Positions 3,061 to 64,000 of a stretch of DNA of 64,000 bases are shown piece by piece. This DNA comes from Escherichia coli (GTDB lineage: Bacteria > Pseudomonadota > Gammaproteobacteria > Enterobacterales > Enterobacteriaceae), in the NCBI RefSeq assembly GCF_003334315.1, contig NZ_QOWR01000019.1, one strand, 5' to 3'. The translations under genes were made by a program, and so were the position numbers. The notes under the pieces were generated by a model. It had not been told where the DNA came from. It saw only the letters and a program-made list of their open reading frames with translations, and did not search any database. How positions within the stretch are numbered: position 1 is the first letter of the stretch; each line of letters starts with the position of its first letter.

Positions 3061-3206
3061 ATATTTCTGCTTTAAAAGTTAAAAGCAAAGCGCATTATTC
3101 AATAAACATAGCACAAAATAACGGGGGCGGTGGTCGGCGAGCATAAATGTCGGCATTCCTCACGAAATGCCGGACAATTTACGGGGTTTATTGGTTGATC
3201 AAGGCG

Positions 3207-3722
3207 TTAGCGATTCTCGATGGACTGACGGAGCGTACCCGCCGTGGCATGAACGCTACCGCCTAAGTAACGCACATCGTCGATGACCCAACACTGGCCT
3301 TCCTGAATCATTAACACTTCATCCTGCCAACCCTGGTCACCCTGTTTGAGATCCACGCGCAATGGAATGTTACGGGCATCACGATTAGGGATAGTCGATG
3401 CACTGGCAACGTGGGCGCTATCTGGCAAGGTGGTTCGACTGGAGAATGGATCGTTGGTCAGTAGTTCCCGATGGTTATTATCCCGGGAGGCATCGCTAAG
3501 CAGTGTCGCCAGTTTGTCGCTCAGATAAGGGCGCAAGGCGGTGATGTCGTTGCTGCGGTGCAAAATGCGGTAGTCATAAAATTGCTGGGCCACGTTATCC
3601 GGGCCTCCTTCAACGCAAGGACCACTGCGTGTGCCGTTATCTTTATAAGCTGGAGTGACTGTGGTGCAGGCACTGAGGAGCAGTGCGCAGGGGATAAGCA
3701 TTGTCAATTTGCTGTAGCGCAT
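3207..3722 (-). CDS. ybjP: lipoprotein YbjP
   Basis: 171-aa ORF with lipobox LLSAC after signal peptide. Confidence 0.9.
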   Translation of the reverse strand: MRYSKLTMLIPCALLLSACTTVTPAYKDNGTRSGPCVEGGPDNVAQQFYDYRILHRSNDITALRPYLSDKLATLLSDASRDNNHRELLTNDPFSSRTTLPDSAHVASASTIPNRDARNIPLRVDLKQGDQGWQDEVLMIQEGQCWVIDDVRYLGGSVHATAGTLRQSIENR

Positions 3723-3847
3723 AATGATTTCCTTATAAGCGATCGCTCTGAAAGCGTTCTACGATAATAATGATATCCTTTCAATAATAGCGTATCAGTC
3801 TGATAATGCTTTTGAGATCGAAGGCTTAGCAAACAAGGAGATCGATC

Positions 3848-4171
3848 ATGCAATTTTCTACAACCCCAACTCTGGAAGGCCAGACCATCGTTGAATATTG
3901 CGGTGTGGTGACCGGCGAAGCGATTTTAGGTGCCAATATTTTCCGTGATTTCTTTGCCGGTATCCGCGATATCGTTGGCGGACGTTCCGGTGCGTATGAA
4001 AAAGAACTGCGTAAAGCACGGGAGATCGCCTTTGAGGAATTAGGCTCCCAGGCGCGGGCGCTGGGGGCCGATGCCGTCGTCGGTATTGATATCGACTACG
4101 AAACGGTCGGGCAAAACGGCAGTATGCTGATGGTTAGCGTCAGCGGTACGGCGGTGAAAACGCGTCGATGA
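3848..4171 (+). CDS. ybjQ: UPF0145 family protein YbjQ
   Basis: 107-aa ORF with RBS aaggag upstream; 4-nt overlap with amiD. Confidence 0.9.
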
Positions 4172-4998
4172 GAAGAGTCTTCTGGCTGGTCGCTGCCGCT
4201 CTGTTATTGGCAGGGTGTGCAGGCGAAAAAGGCATTGTCGAGAAAGAGGGATATCAGCTTGATACCCGACGCCAGGCGCAGGCGGCGTATCCGCGCATTA
4301 AAGTGCTGGTGATCCACTACACCGCAGATGATTTTGATAGCTCGCTGGCGACACTGACCGATAAGCAGGTCAGCTCGCATTATCTGGTCCCTGCGGTACC
4401 ACCGCGATACAACGGTAAACCGCGCATCTGGCAACTGGTGCCGGAACAAGAACTGGCCTGGCATGCGGGGATTAGCGCCTGGCGCGGGGCAACGCGCCTT
4501 AACGACACCTCTATTGGCATTGAGCTGGAAAACCGTGGCTGGCAAAAATCGGCCGGAGTGAAATATTTTGCCCCGTTTGAACCGGCACAGATTCAGGCGC
4601 TTATTCCACTGGCGAAAGATATTATTGCCCGTTATCACATCAAGCCGGAAAACGTAGTGGCACATGCGGATATCGCACCGCAGCGCAAAGACGATCCGGG
4701 GCCATTATTTCCCTGGCAGCAACTGGCGCAGCAGGGGATTGGTGCCTGGCCGGATGCGCAGCGGGTTAACTTTTACCTTGCCGGGCGCGCGCCGCACACA
4801 CCGGTAGATACCGCGTCATTGCTGGAGCTTTTGGCGCGCTACGGTTATGACGTTAAACCTGATATGACACCGCGCGAGCAGCGGCGCGTGATTATGGCAT
4901 TCCAGATGCATTTCCGCCCGACGTTATATAACGGCGAAGCGGATGCAGAAACTCAGGCGATTGCCGAAGCATTGCTGGAGAAATACGGGCAGGATTAG
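4168..4998 (+). CDS. amiD: N-acetylmuramoyl-L-alanine amidase AmiD (lipoprotein, amidase_2 family)
   Basis: 276-aa ORF, lipobox LLAGCAG, amidase_2-type sequence. Confidence 0.9.
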
Positions 4999-6008
4999 CG
5001 CGGCAGTTTTCCGTGGTCGCGTAGCCAGGCGGCAGTTTTCTCGATACCTTCATCCAGGGTGATGACCGGCTGATAACCTAACTCTTCCTGCGCACGCGTA
5101 ATATCCAGCGTAAAGTCAAAATTCAACTTGGAGACGCCGTAGTGGGTCAGCGGCGGCTCTTTTGCTGACTTGCGGCCTAAACGCTCCATGCTGCGGGCGA
5201 TCATATCCAGCATCGGGTAGGGGACGGAACGAATACGACAGTCAATATTCAACTCGTCGATCAGCTTCTGCACGATGCTGCGCAGTGTGCGATGCTCGCC
5301 GTTGGTGATGTTGTACACACGCCCGGAAGGTAGCTTATCGCAGGCTTCCTGGCTTGCCAGCCACATTGCGTGCACGGCATTTTCATAGTAGGTCATATCG
5401 ACCAGCGCACTGCCGCCATGCGGTAACAGAATACTGCCGTAGTGGTGCATCATATGCGCCAGACGGGGAATAAAGACTTTATCGTGCGGTCCGAACAGAC
5501 TTTGTGGGCGCAGAATAGTAAAGCGCGTTTGTGGATTCGCCTGCGAAAGCATATTGATCACTTCTTCGCTGGCTGCTTTGCTGCGGGCAAACTCGTTGGC
5601 GAAGCGGTGAGGGCGAAAATCTTCTTTAATATCGCGATGGTGGTGATAATCGAAGTACAGGGAGGGGGAAGAGATATGAATAAAGTTACGCACACCCCAG
5701 GCGACAGCCCATTCACCCAGGCGGCGAGTGGCGCGAACGTTAGCCAGATCGAAAGCCTGTTGTGTCCCCCAGGGTGAGGTAAAGCTGGAGCAGTGCCACA
5801 GCGTATCAATGCCCGCGAGCATCACTTTAGCTTGTGATGAAACCAGCTCGGTCAGATCCGCCGGAACAAACTCTGCGCCCATTTTTTCCAGCAATTTGCC
5901 CATTGCCTCGTTGCGACCGGTCGCTCGCACGCTGATGCCTTTCTGGCATAAAAACTCTACCGCGTTTCGACCTAAGCCGCTGGTGGCGCCGGTAACCAGT
6001 ACCTTCAT
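4995..6008 (-). CDS. ybjS: NAD-dependent epimerase/dehydratase family protein YbjS
   Basis: Rossmann motif [13 protein letters not shown] at proposed start; supplied ORF 5'-extended by 21 codons. Confidence 0.85.
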
Positions 6009-6106
6009 ATCAATCCACTGTTGTTGAGAAAATAACGTGCGCATTCTTCCGTGATTTCCCCCATGATGCAATGGGAAACATGAAAGAATAACGCAGGTTT
6101 TGTCGA

Positions 6107-7537
6107 TTAATCTGTGCTTTGTTCTGCCAGTCTGGCGATTTGTTTTGCCATTCCGCGAAAAATAAACAGATGCGCGGGGATCATCAATAACCAGTAAAAC
6201 AGCCCCGGCATACCGTGCGGATGCCAGAAAGCGCGGACATCGATAGTACGATAGTCGCCTTTATCTTCCAGGCTAAAACACAGTCGTCCCAGCCCCGGCG
6301 CTTTCATGCCAAATAACAACGTAAGTTGTTTTTCCGGTTCAACGACAATCACTTTCCAGCTATCCACCGCATCGCCAGTCTGTAAATATTCGCGCTCCGG
6401 GCGGCCTTTCGCCAGCTTATGACCGATCGCGCGGTCCATCAACGCCCGTGTCTGCCACAAAATATTGCCAAAGAAATAACGCTCTTTACCGCCGATTTGG
6501 TTCACCACCTGCCATAAAGCCGCAAGGCTGGCGGACGTTTTAACGGTAAACCCCGCCTGTTTGGCGAAATAACCGTACTCCGGTCGCCAGCGGGCAAAGG
6601 CCTGAGCGTCGTAGCCCCAGTCGCTGGAGTTGACCAGTTTTTCTTCCTCTTTCAACGTGCTACGTACCGCGTCATCGAAAGCGATCAGCCGTTGTGGGAT
6701 GAGTGCACGTAGCGCGGTATCATCCGCCAGCAGATCGTGTTTCAGCCCCTGAATCAACGCCCTGGCGGTGGTGGGCGGTACGGAAGTAATCACATTGAGA
6801 AACCACACCGAAATCCAGCGGGTGGGGAGGGGGATGGGGATCAACCAGCGGCGCTTACCGCTCACCGCCATAAAATGTTCAAACTGTTGCTGATAACTGA
6901 GCACCTCTGGTCCGGCGGCTTCGAAGATGCGGTGTTCGCTGGCCGGATGATCTAACAACGCCACCAGATAGTGCAGCAAGTTTTCCAGCGCGATGGGCGT
7001 GGTGCGTGAACGTACCCAGCGTGGCGGCGTTAACACTGGCAGGTTGTAGACCATATCGCGCATGACTTCGAACGCCGCTGAACCTGCGCCAACGATAATT
7101 CCGGCCCGAAGTTCGGTCACAGGTACATTCGCTTCACGAAGAATGTCCGCCGTAGCCTGACGAGCACGCAGATGATCCGACTGCTCATGTGGCGGGGCCT
7201 GCAACGAACTGAGAAAGATTAATTGCTTAACTGGTACTTCACGTAGCGCATCGCGGACGTTGAGAGCCACCTGGCGCTCCTGAGCGATAAAATCGCCGCC
7301 TTCGCCCATGCTGTGCACCAGAAAATAGACGGTATCGATATCCTGCAACAGGGCCGGAAGGTTATCCGGCCAGCTGAGATCGACTTTATGGCAACTGACG
7401 TTTGCCAGTTGCAGCTTTGCAAGCCTGTCGACATGACGTGCCGCCGCCAGGATCTGATGCCCTTGCTGGCTGAGTGTGCGCACCAGATGCTGACCAATGT
7501 AGCCACTGGCACCGAGAACTAAAATGCGTTGCGGCAC
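6107..7537 (-). CDS. ybjT: NAD(P)-binding protein YbjT
   Basis: Rossmann motif [14 protein letters not shown]; start set at GTG giving 476 aa (inference). Confidence 0.8.
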
Positions 7538-7547
7538 GTCTCTCTCC

Positions 7548-8549
7548 TTAACGCGCCAGGAATGCGCGCCAGTGGGCGGCGACTTCCGCCAGTTGTTCGC
7601 GCGAGACGTCAAGATGCGTCACCAGGCGGACAATCGGCGAGGCGTTAATCAGCACGTTTCTCGCTTTCATGTATTCGCCTAACGCGGCAGCATTTTCTTC
7701 CCCGACGCGAACAAACAGCATATTAGTGTCCTGACGCATCACATCCGCGCCTGCTTCACGCAGTTGCTCCGCCATCCAGGCGGCGTTGTCGTGATCTTCC
7801 TGCAACCGTGCGACGTTATTTTTCAGGGCATACATCCCGGCGGCAGCCAGAATCCCGGACTGACGCATCCCGCCACCGGCCATTTTCCGCCAGCGGATGG
7901 CACGTTTAATGTAATCACGATTACCGACGAGTAATGAACCGACTGGCGTCCCAAGACCTTTCGACAGGCAAATGGTGAACGAATCACAATATTGCGTGAT
8001 CTCTTTCAGTTCGCAGCCGTAAGCCACCACGGCATTAAAGATGCGCGCACCGTCAACATGCAGCGCCAGATTGCGCTCGCGGGTAAATTCCCATGCTTCT
8101 TTCAGGTATTCACGCGGCAGCACTTTGCCGTTGTGGGTGTTTTCCAGACTGAGTAATTTGGTGCGGGCGAAATGGATATCGTCGGGTTTGATTTTCATCG
8201 CCACTTTATCCAGCGGTAGCGTGCCGTCGGCAGCCGCGTCGATGGGTTGCGGCTGAATACTGCCCAGCACCGCTGCGCCACCGGCTTCAAACAGATAGTT
8301 ATGCGCGGCCTGACCGACAATATACTCTTCGCCACGTTCGCAGTGACTGAGCAGAGCGACCAGGTTGGCCTGAGTGCCGGTAGGCAGAAAAATGGCGGCT
8401 TCTTTACCGGAAAGCTCTGCTGCATAGTCCTGCAGAGCATTAACGGTAGGGTCGTCTCCGTAAACGTCGTCCCCAACCGGGGCGGCCATCATCGCTTCGA
8501 GCATGGCGCGGCTCGGTCGGGTAACGGTATCACTGCGTAAATCAATCAT
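7548..8549 (-). CDS. ltaE: low-specificity L-threonine aldolase
   Basis: 333-aa PLP-dependent aldolase-like ORF; synteny. Confidence 0.9.
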
Positions 8550-8585
8550 GGCATGTCCTTATTATGACGGGAAATGCCACCCTTT

Positions 8586-10304
8586 TTACCTTAGCCAGTT
8601 CGTTTTCGCCAGTTCGATCACTTCATCGCCGCGTCCGCTGATGATTGCGCGCAACATATACAAGCTAAATCCTTTGGCCTGTTCGAGTTTGATCTGCGGT
8701 GGAATGGCTAACTCTTCTTTGGCGACCACCACATCCACCAGCACCGGACCGTCGATGGAGAAGGCGCGTTGCAGGGCTTCATCAACTTCAGACGCTTTTT
8801 CTACACGGATACCCGTAATGCCGCACGCTTCGGCAATGCGGGCAAAGTTTGTGTCGTGTAGTTCGGTGCCGTCAGTCAAATAGCCACCAGCTTTCATCTC
8901 CATCGCCACAAAGCCCAGCACGCTGTTGTTAAAGACGACAATTTTCACTGGCAGTTTCATCTGCACTACTGAGAGGAAATCGCCCATCAACATGCTAAAA
9001 CCGCCATCGCCGCACATGGCGACCACCTGACGTTCTGGCTCTGTCGCCTGCGCACCCAGCGCCTGCGGCATGGCGTTAGCCATCGAACCGTGGTTAAACG
9101 AACCTAACAGGCGACGCTTGCCGTTCATTTTTAGATAACGCGCTGCCCATACTGTTGGCGTGCCGACGTCACAGGTAAAGATTGCGTCATCGGCGGCAAA
9201 ATGACTAATTTGCTGCGCCAGATATTGCGGGTGAATGGCTTTCTCGCTCGGTTTAGCTAAATCGTCCAGCCCTTTGCGGGCATCGCGGTAATCTTCCAGC
9301 GCTTTATCCAGAAATTTGCGATCGGCTTTTTCTTCCACCAGTGGCAGCAATGCACGCAGGGTTGATTTGATATCGCCGACCAGCGCCATATCTACCTTGC
9401 TATGCGCGCCGATGCTGGCTGGATTGATATCAATCTGAATGATTTTGGCATCGGTCGGGTAGAAGGCGCGGTAGGGAAATTGCGTGCCGAGCAGCACTAA
9501 CGTATCGGCATTCATCATAGTGTGAAAACCTGACGAGAAGCCGATTAACCCGGTCATTCCAACATCATACGGATTATCGTATTCGACATGTTCTTTACCG
9601 CGCAGGGCATGAACAATAGGCGCTTTAATTTTCCCGGCAAACTCAACTAACTCTTTATGCGCCCCCGCGCAGCCGCTGCCACACATCAGGGCGATATTGC
9701 TGGAATAACGCAGCAGTTGCGCCAGTTTGCGTAACTCTTCTTCTTCCGGCGTCACGACTGGTTGTGGCGCATGATACCAGTGCATGGTTACCCCTTCTGG
9801 CGCAGGTTTTAACGCCACGTCGCCTGGTAACACGACAACCGAAACGCCACGGTTAAGCACCGCTTTGCGCATGGCAATCGCCAGTACTTGTGGGATCTGC
9901 TCCGGGCTGGAAACCAGCTCGCAATAGTGACTACATTCGCGGAATAGCTCTTGTGGGTGGGTTTCCTGGAAATAGCCGCTGCCAATTTCGCTGGAGGGAA
10001 TATGAGCGGCAATCGCCAGTACCGGAACGTGATTGCGGTGGCAATCGAACAGGCCGTTGATTAAGTGCAGGTTGCCGGGGCCGCACGATCCGGCGCAGAC
10101 CGCCAGTTCTCCGCTAAGTTGTGCTTCAGCGCCAGCGGCAAAGGCCGCCACTTCTTCGTGGCGGGTGGACATCCACTCGATGGTGCCCATGCGATTAAGA
10201 CTGTCACTAAGACCGTTCAGAGAGTCGCCTGTGACTCCCCAGATGCGTTTCACCCCTGCCGATTCGAGTGTTTTGGCGATATAAGCTGCAACCGTTTGTT
10301 TCAT
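8586..10304 (-). CDS. poxB: pyruvate oxidase (ubiquinone), TPP/FAD enzyme
   Basis: 572-aa ORF with TPP-binding GDG..N motif region ([14 protein letters not shown]). Confidence 0.93.
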
Positions 10305-10436: not shown

Positions 10437-11405
10437 TTATGCGAGAACCAAATCCCCCTGCGGATGGCAGGAGCAGGCCAGTACGTAACCTTCAGCGATT
10501 TCGGCGTCGGTCAGCGTCATTGTGCTGCTCACCGTATATTCACCGGAAACCACTTTTGTCTTACAGCAGCCGCAAACACCCGCACGGCAGGCAGCGACAA
10601 CCGGAACGTTATTGCTTTCCAGCGCCTCCAGTAGCGTGGTGCCAACCGGGGCGTAAAATTCTCGTGCCGGTTGCAGTTTGGTGAATTTCAGACCGCTGGT
10701 CGCCGCTTCTGCTACTGGGGTGAAGAATTTCTCTTTAAAGAAACGCGTCACGCCGAGCGCTTTCACTTCCTGCTCTACCCAATCCATATACGGAGCCGGG
10801 CCGCAGGTCATCACGGTACGTGAAGCTAAGTCAGGTACACCTGCCAGCAGTTCGCGAGTGAGACGACCAGCGATAAAGCCTTCGGTAACGTTATTTTCTG
10901 CCACCAGCGTTACCGGATAGTTACGCCACTCATCGGCGAAAATAACATCCTGCGGCGTACGCACGTTGTAGATCACCCGCACATCGGCCTGTGGACGGTT
11001 CTTCGCAAGCCAGCGACGCATCGACATAATCGGCGTGACGCCGCAGCCTGCCGCCAGCAACAGGAATTTATCTTCTGCTTTATCGTCGCAGGTAAATTCC
11101 CCCATCGCGTCCGAAAGCCAGAGATAATCACCGCGTTTTACATCGCGCGTCAGCCACTGGGAGCCGACACCGTCATCAATCCGCCGCACGGTCAGGGTGA
11201 TATATTCACTCACGCCTGGCGTGGAGGAAATGGTGTAAGCACGCAGCGTTTCCGCTGAGTTTCGCACGCTGACCAGTGCATATTGCCCGGCGCGATATGG
11301 GTAGTAATCGTGGCAAATCAGGGAAATCGTCCACACATCCGGCGTTTCTTGCGTAATGTGATGAACCTGCATCCGCCACGGGCATTGATTCGTTGGCATC
11401 GTCAT
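10437..11405 (-). CDS. hcr: NADH oxidoreductase for hybrid-cluster protein (FAD/NAD, 2Fe-2S)
   Basis: C-terminal ferredoxin cysteine cluster CRAGVCGCC; start overlaps hcp stop (operon). Confidence 0.9.
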   Translation of the reverse strand: MTMPTNQCPWRMQVHHITQETPDVWTISLICHDYYPYRAGQYALVSVRNSAETLRAYTISSTPGVSEYITLTVRRIDDGVGSQWLTRDVKRGDYLWLSDAMGEFTCDDKAEDKFLLLAAGCGVTPIMSMRRWLAKNRPQADVRVIYNVRTPQDVIFADEWRNYPVTLVAENNVTEGFIAGRLTRELLAGVPDLASRTVMTCGPAPYMDWVEQEVKALGVTRFFKEKFFTPVAEAATSGLKFTKLQPAREFYAPVGTTLLEALESNNVPVVAACRAGVCGCCKTKVVSGEYTVSSTMTLTDAEIAEGYVLACSCHPQGDLVLA

Positions 11406-13212: not shown

Positions 13213-14112
13213 TTACGCAGAGAAAAAGGCGATGAGGATCGGCACTAACAGGCTAAGAATAAAACCGTGAACAATTGCCGCCGGGACCATATCCAGCCCG
13301 CCAGTACGTTGAAGAACGGGCAGGGTGAAATCCATTGATGTGGCACCGCATAAGCCCAGTGCAGTAGAGCGGCTGCGGCGAATCAGCCCAGGGATCAACA
13401 TAATAGCAATCAGTTCACGGGCCAGATCATTAAAAAACGCCGCGCTCCCGATTACCGGGCCAAAAGATTCGGTCAATAAAATACCGGAAAGAGAATACCA
13501 GCCGAAACCGGAGGCCATTGCCAGCGCGGTATTGATGGGGAGATCAAGAATAAAGGCGTTAATTAAACCACCAATTAATGAACTGGCAACCACCACCACG
13601 GCGACAATCATTCCCCGGCGATTAAGGACAATCTGCTTTAAGGTCATGCCATTATTGCGCAACTGAATACCGACGAGGAAAAGTAGCAGAATTAACGTGT
13701 ATTCGCTGGCTTCGGTCGCGTGTTGTAAGAAAGCCAGTCCACTCAGACCAATGGCAAAACCAATCACTACTACGCCGCACAGTTTTAGCGACTCCAGCGC
13801 CATCGCAATACGCGACGGGAGTTTTTCTTGCTGATGGTGATTGCGCCATGGCAGGCCTCGCTCCAGCCACATCAGGGCGGCAATATTACATAGTAAAATA
13901 ACGGTAATACTGACAGCAGAATAATGCAGAATCGCCAACAGGTTACTGGCGAGGTTATCGAGAAACGCCAGACTGATACCCATAAAAAAGAGAATAAGGT
14001 AAACCATCCAGCTTAATAGCTGATTAATAACTTTTAATGCAGCTTTTTGGCGAAGCGGAATGAGGTAACCCACAATCAGGGGAACCAGAATGATTAACAG
14101 CCCAGAAAACAT
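13213..14112 (-). CDS. ybjE: inner-membrane lysine exporter YbjE/LysO
   Basis: multi-TM ORF; start placed at internal ATG (MFSGLLIIL) giving 299 aa. Confidence 0.88.
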   Translation of the reverse strand: MFSGLLIILVPLIVGYLIPLRQKAALKVINQLLSWMVYLILFFMGISLAFLDNLASNLLAILHYSAVSITVILLCNIAALMWLERGLPWRNHHQQEKLPSRIAMALESLKLCGVVVIGFAIGLSGLAFLQHATEASEYTLILLLFLVGIQLRNNGMTLKQIVLNRRGMIVAVVVVASSLIGGLINAFILDLPINTALAMASGFGWYSLSGILLTESFGPVIGSAAFFNDLARELIAIMLIPGLIRRSRSTALGLCGATSMDFTLPVLQRTGGLDMVPAAIVHGFILSLLVPILIAFFSA

Positions 14113-14567
14113 GAAAACCCAGTCCTTGCAAAGATGAAGTCGAAATGCGCGATGACACACTACTGAAAGCGGAAGGACGAGTAAAGTTGCAATTAAAAGG
14201 AAATGTTATGCATAAGGAGCAGTAGAGTATTCGTTTTCATTTAAAGATATTCTTGCGCTTTAATTACAAACTGCACCGATGTTGGTGGCGTCAAAATCGC
14301 CGAGGCGTTCCCTGAAGGCCGGGGCAGCCCACATGGATGTGGGCTGAGGGCGCGTTTTACAGGGATGTTACCTCGCGCCCGACCCGGTAGCCGTAAGGGA
14401 TAAGTCGAGGGCACCGCGCAGCGGCGATTTTGTTCGCCAGAGCCCGGGGGTGCAGGGGGCGGCGGCGATTGGCCGCCCCCTGCGCGCTCCTTGCGCCAGT
14501 GGCAATATGTGGCTTAGCTCATGAAAGGAGCGCAACAAGATGATGAATCAACATATAACAACATCTT

Positions 14568-25005: not shown

Positions 25006-25210
25006 GTTCACTGCCGTACAGGCAGCTTAGAAAAACCTACCGTCTTGGCTAGCGGTTGCAGCGAACGTTCACTGCCGTACAGGCAGCTTAGAAAGGAACA
25101 ATCTTGCAAAGGCTGTGAAAGTTGGCGTTCACTGCCGTACAGGCAGCTTAGAAATTCACAGGTAACATACTCCACCCACCATGTTCACTGCCGTACAGAC
25201 AGATAAAATG
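25006..25210 (+). CRISPR. orphan type I-F CRISPR array remnant: 3 intact 28-bp repeats plus 1 degenerate terminal repeat
   Basis: repeat gttcactgccgtacaggcagcttagaaa at 25006-25033, 25067-25094, 25127-25154; degenerate copy gttcactgccgtacagacagataaaatg at 25183-25210; spacers of 33, 32 and 28 nt; no cas genes in window. Confidence 0.92.
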
Positions 25211-25253: not shown

Positions 25254-25341
25254 TGGCGGTGAGGGGGGGATTCGAACCCCCGATACGTTGCCGTATACAC
25301 ACTTTCCAGGCGTGCTCCTTCAGCCACTCGGACACCTCACC
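25254..25341 (-). tRNA. serW: tRNA-Ser (long variable arm, 88 nt, encoded CCA)
   Basis: reverse complement reads ggtgaggtgtccgagtggctgaaggagcacgcctggaaagtgtgtatacggcaacgtatcgggggttcgaatccccccctcaccgcca. Confidence 0.95.
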
Positions 25342-32593: not shown

Positions 32594-35500
32594 TTGAGCC
32601 AGGAATACACTGAAGACAAAGAAGTCACATTGACAAAGTTAAGTAGCGGCCGCCGCCTTCTGGAGGCGTTGCTGATCCTTATTGTCCTGTTTGCCGTCTG
32701 GTTGATGGCTGCCTTACTAAGCTTTAACCCTTCGGACCCCAGCTGGTCGCAAACGGCCTGGCATGAACCTATCCATAATTTAGGTGGGATGCCCGGTGCG
32801 TGGTTGGCAGATACGCTGTTCTTTATTTTTGGCGTGATGGCTTACACCATTCCCGTCATTATTGTCGGCGGTTGTTGGTTTGCCTGGCGTCATCAGTCCA
32901 GCGACGAATACATTGATTATTTTGCCGTTTCGCTACGCATCATTGGCGTTTTGGCGCTCATCCTTACCTCCTGTGGTCTGGCGGCAATCAACGCTGACGA
33001 TATCTGGTATTTTGCCTCCGGTGGCGTCATTGGCAGCTTACTAAGCACTACGCTACAACCACTGCTACACAGTAGCGGGGGAACTATTGCGCTGCTCTGC
33101 GTTTGGGCAGCGGGCCTGACGTTGTTCACCGGTTGGTCATGGGTGACCATTGCTGAAAAACTCGGCGGCTGGATTTTAAACATTCTCACCTTCGCCAGTA
33201 ATCGTACCCGTCGCGATGATACCTGGGTCGATGAAGATGAGTATGAAGACGACGAAGAGTATGAAGATGAAAATCACGGCAAACAGCATGAATCACGCCG
33301 TGCCCGTATTCTTCGCGGCGCGCTAGCGCGTCGTAAACGGTTGGCGGAAAAATTCATTAATCCGATGGGGCGGCAAACAGACGCTGCGTTGTTCTCCGGT
33401 AAGCGGATGGATGATGACGAAGAGATTACCTACACTGCACGCGGTGTGGCTGCCGACCCGGACGACGTCCTATTTTCGGGCAATCGTGCAACGCAGCCAG
33501 AATATGACGAATACGATCCATTATTAAACGGTGCGCCAATTACCGAACCTGTCGCTGTAGCAGCTGCTGCTACCACGGCGACACAAAGCTGGGCTGCGCC
33601 GGTTGAACCTGTGACTCAGACGCCGCCTGTTGCCTCTGTTGATGTTCCACCTGCGCAACCTACAGTAGCCTGGCAGCCTGTACCGGGTCCACAAACGGGA
33701 GAGCCGGTTATTGCTCCTGCACCGGAAGGTTACCCACAGCAGTCACAATATGCGCAGCCTGCATTGCAATATAATGAGCCGCTGCAACAACCAGTACAGC
33801 CGCAGCAGCCGTATTATGCACCTGCAGCTGAACAACCTGCGCAACAGCCGTATTATGCCCCTGCGCCAGAACAACCGGTGGCAGGTAACGCCTGGCAAGC
33901 CGAAGAGCAGCAATCCACTTTTGCTCCACAGTCTACATACCAGACTGAGCAAACTTATCAGCAGCCAGCCGCTCAGGAGCCGTTGTACCAACAGCCGCAA
34001 CCCGTTGAACAGCAGCCTGTTGTGGAGCCTGAACCCGTTGTAGAAGAGACAAAACCCGCGCGTCCGCCGCTTTACTACTTTGAAGAAGTTGAAGAGAAGC
34101 GAGCCCGTGAACGTGAACAACTTGCGGCCTGGTATCAACCGATTCCAGAACCGGTTAAAGAACCAGAACCGATCAAATCTTCGCTGAAAGCACCTTCTGT
34201 TGCAGCAGTACCTCCAGTAGAAGCCGCTGCCGCTGTTTCCCCGCTGGCATCTGGCGTGAAAAAAGCGACACTGGCGACGGGGGCTGCCGCAACCGTTGCC
34301 GCGCCAGTCTTCAGTCTGGCAAATAGCGGTGGACCGCGTCCTCAGGTCAAAGAGGGGATTGGTCCGCAGTTGCCACGACCGAAACGTATCCGCGTGCCAA
34401 CTCGTCGTGAACTGGCGTCTTACGGTATTAAGCTGCCCTCACAGCGTGCGGCGGAAGAAAAAGCCCGTGAAGCCCAGCGCAATCAGTACGATTCTGGCGA
34501 TCAGTACAACGATGATGAAATCGATGCGATGCAGCAGGATGAACTGGCACGTCAGTTCGCCCAGACACAGCAGCAACGCTATGGCGAACAGTATCAACAT
34601 GATGTGCCCGTAAACGCAGAAGATGCAGATGCTGCGGCAGAGGCTGAACTGGCTCGTCAGTTTGCGCAAACTCAACAACAACGTTATTCCGGCGAACAAC
34701 CGGCTGGGGCGAATCCGTTCTCGCTGGATGATTTTGAATTTTCGCCAATGAAAGCGTTGCTGGATGATGGTCCACACGAACCGTTGTTTACGCCAATTGT
34801 TGAACCTGTACAGCAGCCGCAACAACCGGTTGCACCGCAGCAGCAATATCAGCAGCCGCAACAACCAGTTCCGCCGCAGCCGCAGTATCAGCAGCCACAA
34901 CAGCCGGTTGCGCCGCAGCCACAATATCAGCAGCCGCAACAACCGGTTGCGCCACAGCAGCAATATCAGCAGCCGCAACAACCGGTTGCGCCGCAGCAGC
35001 AGTATCAGCAGCCACAACAGCCAGTTGCGCCACAACCGCAGGATACCCTGCTTCATCCGCTGTTGATGCGTAATGGCGACAGCCGTCCGTTGCATAAACC
35101 GACGACGCCGCTGCCTTCTCTGGATTTGCTGACACCGCCGCCGAGCGAAGTGGAGCCGGTAGATACCTTTGCGCTTGAACAAATGGCTCGTCTGGTGGAA
35201 GCGCGTCTGGCTGATTTCCGTATTAAAGCCGATGTCGTCAATTACTCTCCGGGGCCGGTTATCACTCGCTTTGAACTTAACCTGGCTCCTGGCGTAAAAG
35301 CGGCGCGCATTTCTAACTTGTCACGGGACCTTGCCCGTTCACTTTCGACGGTGGCGGTGCGTGTCGTTGAAGTTATTCCTGGCAAACCCTATGTAGGTCT
35401 GGAGTTACCAAATAAAAAACGACAAACCGTTTATCTGCGCGAAGTTTTGGATAACGCCAAATTCCGCGATAATCCGTCGCCATTAACCGTGGTGCTGGGT

Positions 35501-63192: not shown

Positions 63193-63477
63193 ATGACCAA
63201 GTCAGAATTGATAGAAAGACTTGCCACCCAGCAATCGCACATTCCCGCCAAGACGGTTGAAGATGCAGTAAAAGAGATGCTGGAGCATATGGCCTCGACT
63301 CTTGCGCAGGGCGAGCGTATTGAAATCCGCGGTTTCGGCAGTTTCTCTTTGCACTACCGCGCACCACGTACCGGACGTAATCCGAAGACTGGCGATAAAG
63401 TAGAACTGGAAGGAAAATACGTTCCTCACTTTAAACCTGGTAAAGAACTGCGCGATCGCGCCAATATTTACGGTTAA
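63193..63477 (+). CDS. ihfB: integration host factor subunit beta
   Basis: 94-aa HU/IHF-family [14 protein letters not shown]. Confidence 0.96.
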
Positions 63478-63504
63478 GTTTTTTACTCAAACTTGAACGA
63501 GAGA

Positions 63505-63530
63505 AAAGCACCTGTCGGGTGCTTTTTTCA
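63505..63530 (+). terminator. rho-independent terminator of ihfB
   Basis: hairpin agcacc..ggtgct followed by T6. Confidence 0.75.
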
Positions 63531-63684: not shown

Positions 63685-63801
63685 ATGAAAATAACGACAG
63701 TCGGTGTATGCATAATTAGCGGAATTTTTCCGTTGCTGATTTTGCCCCAATTGCCTGGGACATTAACCCTTGCGTTTCTGACTCTCTTCGCCTGCGGGTG
63801 A
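63685..63801 (+). pseudogene. ycaI: 5' fragment of ycaI (ComEC-family membrane protein) truncated by IS1
   Basis: ORF MKITTVGVCIISGIFPLLILPQLPGTLTLAFLTLFACG runs into the IS1 terminal inverted repeat and stops. Confidence 0.7.
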
Positions 63802-64000
63802 TGCTGCCAACTTACTGATTTAGTGTATGATGGTGTTTTTGAGGTGCTCCAGTGGCTTCTGTTTCTATCAGCTGTCCCTCCTGTTCAGCTACTGACGGGG
63901 TGGTGCGTAACGGCAAAAGCACCGCCGGACATCAGCGCTATCTCTGCTCTCACTGCCGTAAAACATGGCAACTGCAGTTCACTTACACCGCTTCTCAACC
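63797..64000 (+). mobile_element. insA: IS1 left end (terminal inverted repeat plus 5' part of insA), continues beyond window
   Basis: ggtgatgctgccaacttactgatttagtgtatgatggtgtttttgaggtgctccagtggcttctgtttctatcagctgtccc is the IS1 terminus; downstream frame encodes InsA N-terminus [42 protein letters not shown]. Confidence 0.92.

Follow-up and report, generated by a model that had tools for sequence, protein, structure and literature searches.

Near the right-hand end of the 64,000-nucleotide stretch of Escherichia coli DNA analysed here (the window), a reading frame opens as ycaI, a gene for a homologue of the DNA-uptake protein ComEC, and stops again after 38 codons, close to the edge of the available sequence. 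This raises the question of whether a mobile element has broken the gene and, if so, what became of the rest of ycaI and of the genes that follow it. A preliminary description of the window, made from its sequence, had proposed that an IS1 insertion truncates ycaI at this point. In order to place the break, we compared the end of the window with the corresponding region of K-12. In the last kilobase, the 3' end of rpsA is followed by ihfB (63193–63477), a hairpin, a spacer and the ycaI ATG (63685–63687), just upstream of which lies a Shine-Dalgarno-like GGGAGGGG. The 207-nucleotide (nt) spacer between ihfB and ycaI shows no difference between the window and K-12. The hairpin resembles an intrinsic terminator and is predicted to separate ihfB transcription from that of ycaI; a matching site was found in K-12, and its coordinates in the related genome HS30-1 are 6002–6030 (window offset +57,499).

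The 112 nt from 63685 to 63796 are 100% identical to nt 1–112 of K-12 ycaI (b0913), which bears out the frame start near 63685 given in the preliminary description. The window runs collinear with K-12 as far as 964,431, and in relatives msbA lies 3' of ycaI; the stub is thus assigned to ycaI both by its sequence and by its location between ihfB and msbA. The insertion falls in codon 38. Translation of the interrupted frame gives MKITTVGVCIISGIFPLLILPQLPGTLTLAFLTLFACG, which ends in LFACG and is followed directly by a stop. This stop (TGA, 63798–63800) is supplied by the left inverted repeat (IRL) of IS1 and produces the 38-codon stub, so the earlier claims that an IS1 repeat begins at about 63797 and that the ycaI frame ends there were both correct. 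Apart from this IS1 and a CRISPR-like array described below, the window has no structural difference from K-12.

Table 1. Coordinates of features at the right-hand end of the window.
Feature	Position	Strand	Remarks
Intrinsic terminator-like hairpin after ihfB	63501..63529	+	13-pair stem and T-run
ycaI 5' stub (ComEC homologue)	63685..63800	+	37 native codons, one hybrid Gly (GGG), TGA
9-bp target-site duplication TCGCCTGCG, left copy	63788..63796		ycaI nt 104–112; right copy beyond the window
IS1A-type IS1, left 204 bp, cut by the window edge	63797..64000	+	Same orientation as ycaI
IS1 IRL, 23 bp, GGTGATGCTGCCAACTTACTGAT	63797..63819	+	Identical to K-12 IS1A
Sigma-70 promoter-like site CTGCCA-16-TATGAT	63804..63831	+	Overlaps IRL; consensus match only; HS30-1 6305–6332
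insA 5' part, 49 codons in the window	63852..64000	+	GTG start 63852–63854; N-terminus of InsA and InsAB'

The final 204 nt of the window are 100% identical to nt 1–204 of the annotated IS1A of K-12 and of the IS1 copy in HS30-1. Because the blastn E value is 9e-107, this match is not due to chance, and it is the sole IS1 match in the 64-kb window. IS1 is defined by a length of 768 bp, imperfect terminal repeats, the genes insA and insB and an A6C frameshift site, and further by a promoter that overlaps IRL and by a target-site duplication of 8 or 9 bp (PMC12428005). The element has every one of these features, those past the first 204 bp being judged on relatives with identical flanks. IRL is present in the window, and the right inverted repeat (IRR), ATCAATAAGTTGGAGTCATTACC, also 23 bp and read in relatives beyond the window, pairs with it at 18 of 23 positions, so the terminal repeats are inverted and imperfect. 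The element measures 768 bp in HS30-1, PI12, cM2a and ST12468, all of them relatives whose flanks match the window (which itself holds 204 bp); nt 262 is the only base at which the copy in relatives departs from IS1A.

The coding content of the element is likewise that of IS1A. insA starts about 55 nt from the left end of IS1, in DNA identical to K-12 IS1A with insA1 (b0022); the preliminary description had placed its GTG at about 63853, within one base of where we find it, and had rightly recognised the InsA N-terminus in the codons that follow. Beyond the window, a relative's IS1 copy encodes the full 91-amino acid (aa) InsA and carries the A6C frameshift motif AAAAAAC at IS1 nt 307, and PGAP labels the relatives' transposase 'IS1-like element IS1A family transposase, programmed frameshift', in agreement with an A6C site leading into insB'. 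The weak IS1 promoter PIS1 has been reported to overlap IRL in part (PMC12428005), and the candidate promoter listed in Table 1 sits at that place. An intact annotated transposase, the many IS1 copies in the lineage and further lineage-specific insertions are indirect indications that this copy may be able to transpose.

To follow ycaI past the window, which ends 204 nt into IS1, we turned to genomes with window-identical flanks, from which the window's own right junction would be as described here. The preliminary description had asked for the other end of IS1, the target duplication and the remainder of ycaI, and all of these were found in such genomes. In HS30-1, a complete IS1 (6298–7065) is followed by the rest of ycaI and then by msbA, lpxK and ycaQ. 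The right junction in relatives consists of IRR followed by TCGCCTGCGTACTGGCATTT, with ycaI resuming at nt 113. TCGCCTGCG flanks both ends of IS1 in HS30-1, PI12 and cM2a and occurs as a single copy in K-12 ycaI, the empty site; the target-site duplication is therefore 9 bp, one of the two lengths known for IS1. When the HS30-1 IS1 and one repeat copy were removed in silico, a 2,265-nt ycaI reading frame with 0 differences from K-12 was obtained. Because this restoration is exact, ycaI is split rather than eroded. Thus, the IS1 insertion in ycaI that was first described stands, and only the word truncation needs correcting: ycaI is interrupted, and 2,153 nt of it remain 3' of IS1 in 50 of the 51 genomes that share the left junction.

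PI12 and cM2a are the closest genomes among the matches listed for the last 25 kb of the window, and neither shows any mismatch to its last 2,536 nt; each carries the 768-bp IS1 in full, with the TCGCCTGCG duplication. No genome that is base-identical over the 25 kb was found among the top matches listed, all of which are members of the lineage with the IS1; by bit score, the best fall a few mismatches short.

To determine how common the insertion is, we queried a collection of 5,426 complete E. coli genomes with 200-bp sequences representing each junction and the empty site, and counted single-piece, full-length hits. The left junction occurs in 51 genomes and the right junction in 50. The comparison with intact strains suggested in the preliminary description gave an uninterrupted site in 5,375 of the 5,426 genomes, so that empty and filled sites account for the whole collection (5,375 + 51 = 5,426) and carriers make up about 0.9% of it. 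A count of 55 carriers from a 501-bp query was dropped, since at least two of those hits were other IS1 insertions (in ATCC 8739 and TUM12357) joined from pieces.

Over the 25 kb next to the insertion, carriers among the matches listed share 99.9–100% identity with the window. They come from several countries, and their sources are humans, chickens, ducks, pigs, frogs, dogs, a pangolin and fish; 14EC001, the only carrier for which a sequence type was found, has been typed as ST793 (PMC6206212). The lineage is IS1-rich, since carrier genomes reach at least 40 IS1 matches as against a median of 10 places per genome. Because the carriers have the same site, orientation and duplication together with near-identical flanks, we infer that a single ancestral insertion lies behind them. 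YZ22MPE6, a 99.9% relative, retains an intact ycaI, and LF4-1 is another near relative with the empty site. YZ22MPE6 also has an IS1 between ycaD and ycaM (10461–11158), absent from the window, and a frameshifted ycaK (13811–14400). Additional insertions of about 777 bp are present within the 25 kb beside ycaI in several carriers, for example HS30-1, 162.2, 2018-11-3CC and OY757949. The junctions of ET220 and ET245 are spaced by 767 nt and not 768, which suggests that IS1 has a 1-bp indel there or was misassembled.

Our preferred reading, to which we assign a probability of roughly 0.92, is that an IS1A-type element entered ycaI once, in an ancestor of this lineage, and probably left a null allele that persisted because the gene is dispensable. 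The element would have transposed between ycaI nt 112 and 113 in the orientation of the gene, duplicating TCGCCTGCG, in a single event in the ancestor of an IS1-rich E. coli lineage that is near K-12 in the ycaI region. IRL would then have put a TGA into the ycaI frame and cut off 717 codons from their promoter and ribosome-binding site. Given that ycaI is dispensable, the disrupted allele, presumably neutral, would have persisted and spread with the lineage.

The likely consequence for YcaI was judged from the intact K-12 protein, in which Pfam identifies Competence (4e-53, aa 201–467), Lactamase_B (4e-23, aa 505–686) and DUF4131 (6e-5, aa 27–157). This is the ComEC architecture of DUF4131, Competence and metallo-beta-lactamase, so the assignment of ycaI to the ComEC family in the preliminary description holds for the intact K-12 allele; the stub in the window amounts to 37 aa. 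IS1 parts the promoter region, the ribosome-binding site and the first 37 codons from the other 717 codons. These first codons encode a hydrophobic N-terminal stretch, probably the first membrane helix, and ycaI is most likely a null allele in the carriers. Inactivation of YcaI is reported to leave plasmid transformation unaffected, and in a screen of Keio knock-outs ycaI was absent from the genes found essential for cell-to-cell plasmid transformation (PMC6135910).

Three other explanations have to be weighed against a simple, ancestral null insertion. The left junction could be the same in the source of the window with the right side rearranged, through an adjacent deletion, through an extra IS1, or because the DNA between IS1 copies was inverted or deleted. 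Such changes do occur among the carriers. ST12468 (NZ_CP103694.1; IS1 6101–6868) has the identical left junction, and its right flank restarts at ycaI nt 619, as though an IS1-adjacent deletion took ycaI nt 113–618 together with the second repeat copy. cM2a (NZ_CM176588.1) has a second, inverted IS1 (at about 4530–5298) after ycaI nt ~1533 with the 9-bp duplication GGGCTGGCA, so that about 1.4 kb of ycaI is bracketed by two inverted IS1 copies. The abundance of IS1 in the lineage points the same way. However, the standard right junction is present in 50 of the 51 left-junction genomes, among them PI12 and cM2a, the two closest relatives of the window, and we consider a rearranged right side very unlikely. 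The further damage to ycaI in ST12468 and cM2a fits a dead or dispensable gene. That the junction is an assembly artefact, either a chimera or a contig end at which collapsed repeats link ycaI with a distant IS1, is scarcely conceivable. Draft contigs often break or are mis-joined at IS copies, and the window does end within IS1. A chimeric assembly had been named at the outset as a finding that would overturn the insertion. Yet 51 complete genomes, assembled independently and drawn from many hosts and laboratories, have the same junction, which rules a chimera out, and the matching right junction, the 9-bp duplication and the exact restoration of the gene in silico argue against any such artefact.

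The remaining explanation accepts the insertion as real and takes it to be non-null, with a shortened YcaI that is partly active, or to have been selected through its effect on msbA-lpxK expression. A frame is open from inside IRR (TLSISWSHYLAC-VLAF...; HS30-1 7038) into ycaI, and on the part of ycaI that follows IS1 PGAP annotates a 726-aa 'ComEC family protein', WP_032234501.1 (HS30-1 7047–9227; 3082–5262 in a second carrier genome). The 2,153 nt of ycaI downstream of IS1 carry no mutation relative to K-12, and transcription from upstream has been reported to enter IS1 copies that lie in tandem with the host gene (PMC12428005). A recent insertion, however, explains the unmutated sequence equally well, and this same part of ycaI has been damaged further in the two lineage members described above. 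The annotated start of WP_032234501.1 is an ATA inside IRR that overlaps the transposase stop and has no obvious ribosome-binding site, and a scan for an outward-facing promoter-like site at IRR, the right end of IS1, found none. Moreover, what YcaI loses is its hydrophobic N-terminus, where the DUF4131 region (aa 27–157) begins. We therefore hold a functional or selected allele to be improbable, and we regard the PGAP call of an intact ComEC protein as an annotation artefact that masks the disruption of ycaI, with a low level of shortened protein being possible. An InsB-YcaI fusion was rejected, as the transposase stop (TAA, HS30-1 7048–7050) is in a different frame from ycaI. On the 5' stub, PGAP places a 'hypothetical protein' pseudogene that begins at an upstream ATG (window 63607).

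The genes msbA and lpxK are essential, and they begin 36 nt downstream of ycaI. A sigma-70 promoter-like sequence, TTGGCG-17-TAGAAT, identified by consensus match only, is located in the 3' end of K-12 ycaI (4560–4588 of the examined K-12 region), 34 nt before msbA. As a candidate for msbA-lpxK expression independent of ycaI, this site would account for the tolerance of a polar IS1 upstream, and the two essential genes are presumably still expressed on their own.

Two other sites in the window were recorded. A small orphan CRISPR-like array (25006–25210) lies in the clpA-serW spacer, beside serW, the gene for tRNA-Ser(GGA) (25254–25341, minus strand). It consists of three exact 28-bp repeats, GTTCACTGCCGTACAGGCAGCTTAGAAA (25006, 25067 and 25127), and a degenerate copy (25183), with spacers of 33, 32 and 28 bp. 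The K-12 site has one exact and one degenerate repeat, so that the window has two extra spacers, for which no match was found in phage or plasmid collections. Matches to GTTCACTGCCGTACAGGCAGCTTAGAAA were also seen in Legionella plasmids, at sites that carry no annotation. The array corresponds to 'CRISPR4', a known vestigial type I-F locus that lies between clpA and infA. In ftsK (34811–35041), the alignment of the window with K-12 returned imperfect direct repeats, 87–94% identical and shifted by about 39 nt or a multiple of that distance, which probably represent a repetitive region of FtsK.

Taken as an ancestral insertion in ycaI, the locus is a textbook case of a dispensable gene disrupted by IS1; it marks a lineage and contains no new biological feature. 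Dozens of RefSeq genomes already contain the insertion in annotated form, and no paper was found when the literature was searched for ycaI in combination with IS1. Its value is as a clean, PCR-typable marker of one IS1-rich E. coli lineage. Additionally, carrier strains probably have no functional ComEC homologue, which matters for work on DNA uptake and on DNA as a nutrient. The case also exposes an artefact of PGAP annotation, in which the fragment after IS1 is called an intact ComEC protein and the pseudogene is hidden.

Other IS1 insertions at and beyond this locus provide a comparison. In TUM12357 (IS1 3131–3898), IS1 is inserted 55 nt before the ycaI ATG with an 8-bp duplication, CAAAATTC, and in the CP043852 assembly of ATCC 8739 (IS1 3624–4391) it follows ycaI nt 438 with a 9-bp duplication, GATGGCGGC. 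Both have the orientation seen in the window; each is present in one examined genome, and their different positions mark them as independent events. Thus, three independent IS1 insertions that share one orientation fall within about 500 bp (−55, +112 and +438). It is a tentative and rather unlikely suggestion that the 5' end of ycaI and the spacer before it are a preferred IS1 target, that loss of the ComEC homologue has been selected repeatedly, or that msbA-lpxK expression has been tuned; if true, the region would be an IS1 hot spot, a site of selection for ycaI loss, or a means of tuning the essential msbA-lpxK. The element itself matches IS1A and IS1E of K-12, the 'consensus' IS1, in IRL, IRR, insA, the A6C motif, insB' and the 9-bp duplication. 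The only difference is chromosomal location, there being no IS1 within K-12 ycaI. The nearest parallel is IS1E in K-12 yrhA, which is likewise an IS1 inside a dispensable reading frame, in the orientation of its host gene, with a different target gene; there, transcription of the host gene can enter insAB' (PMC12428005).
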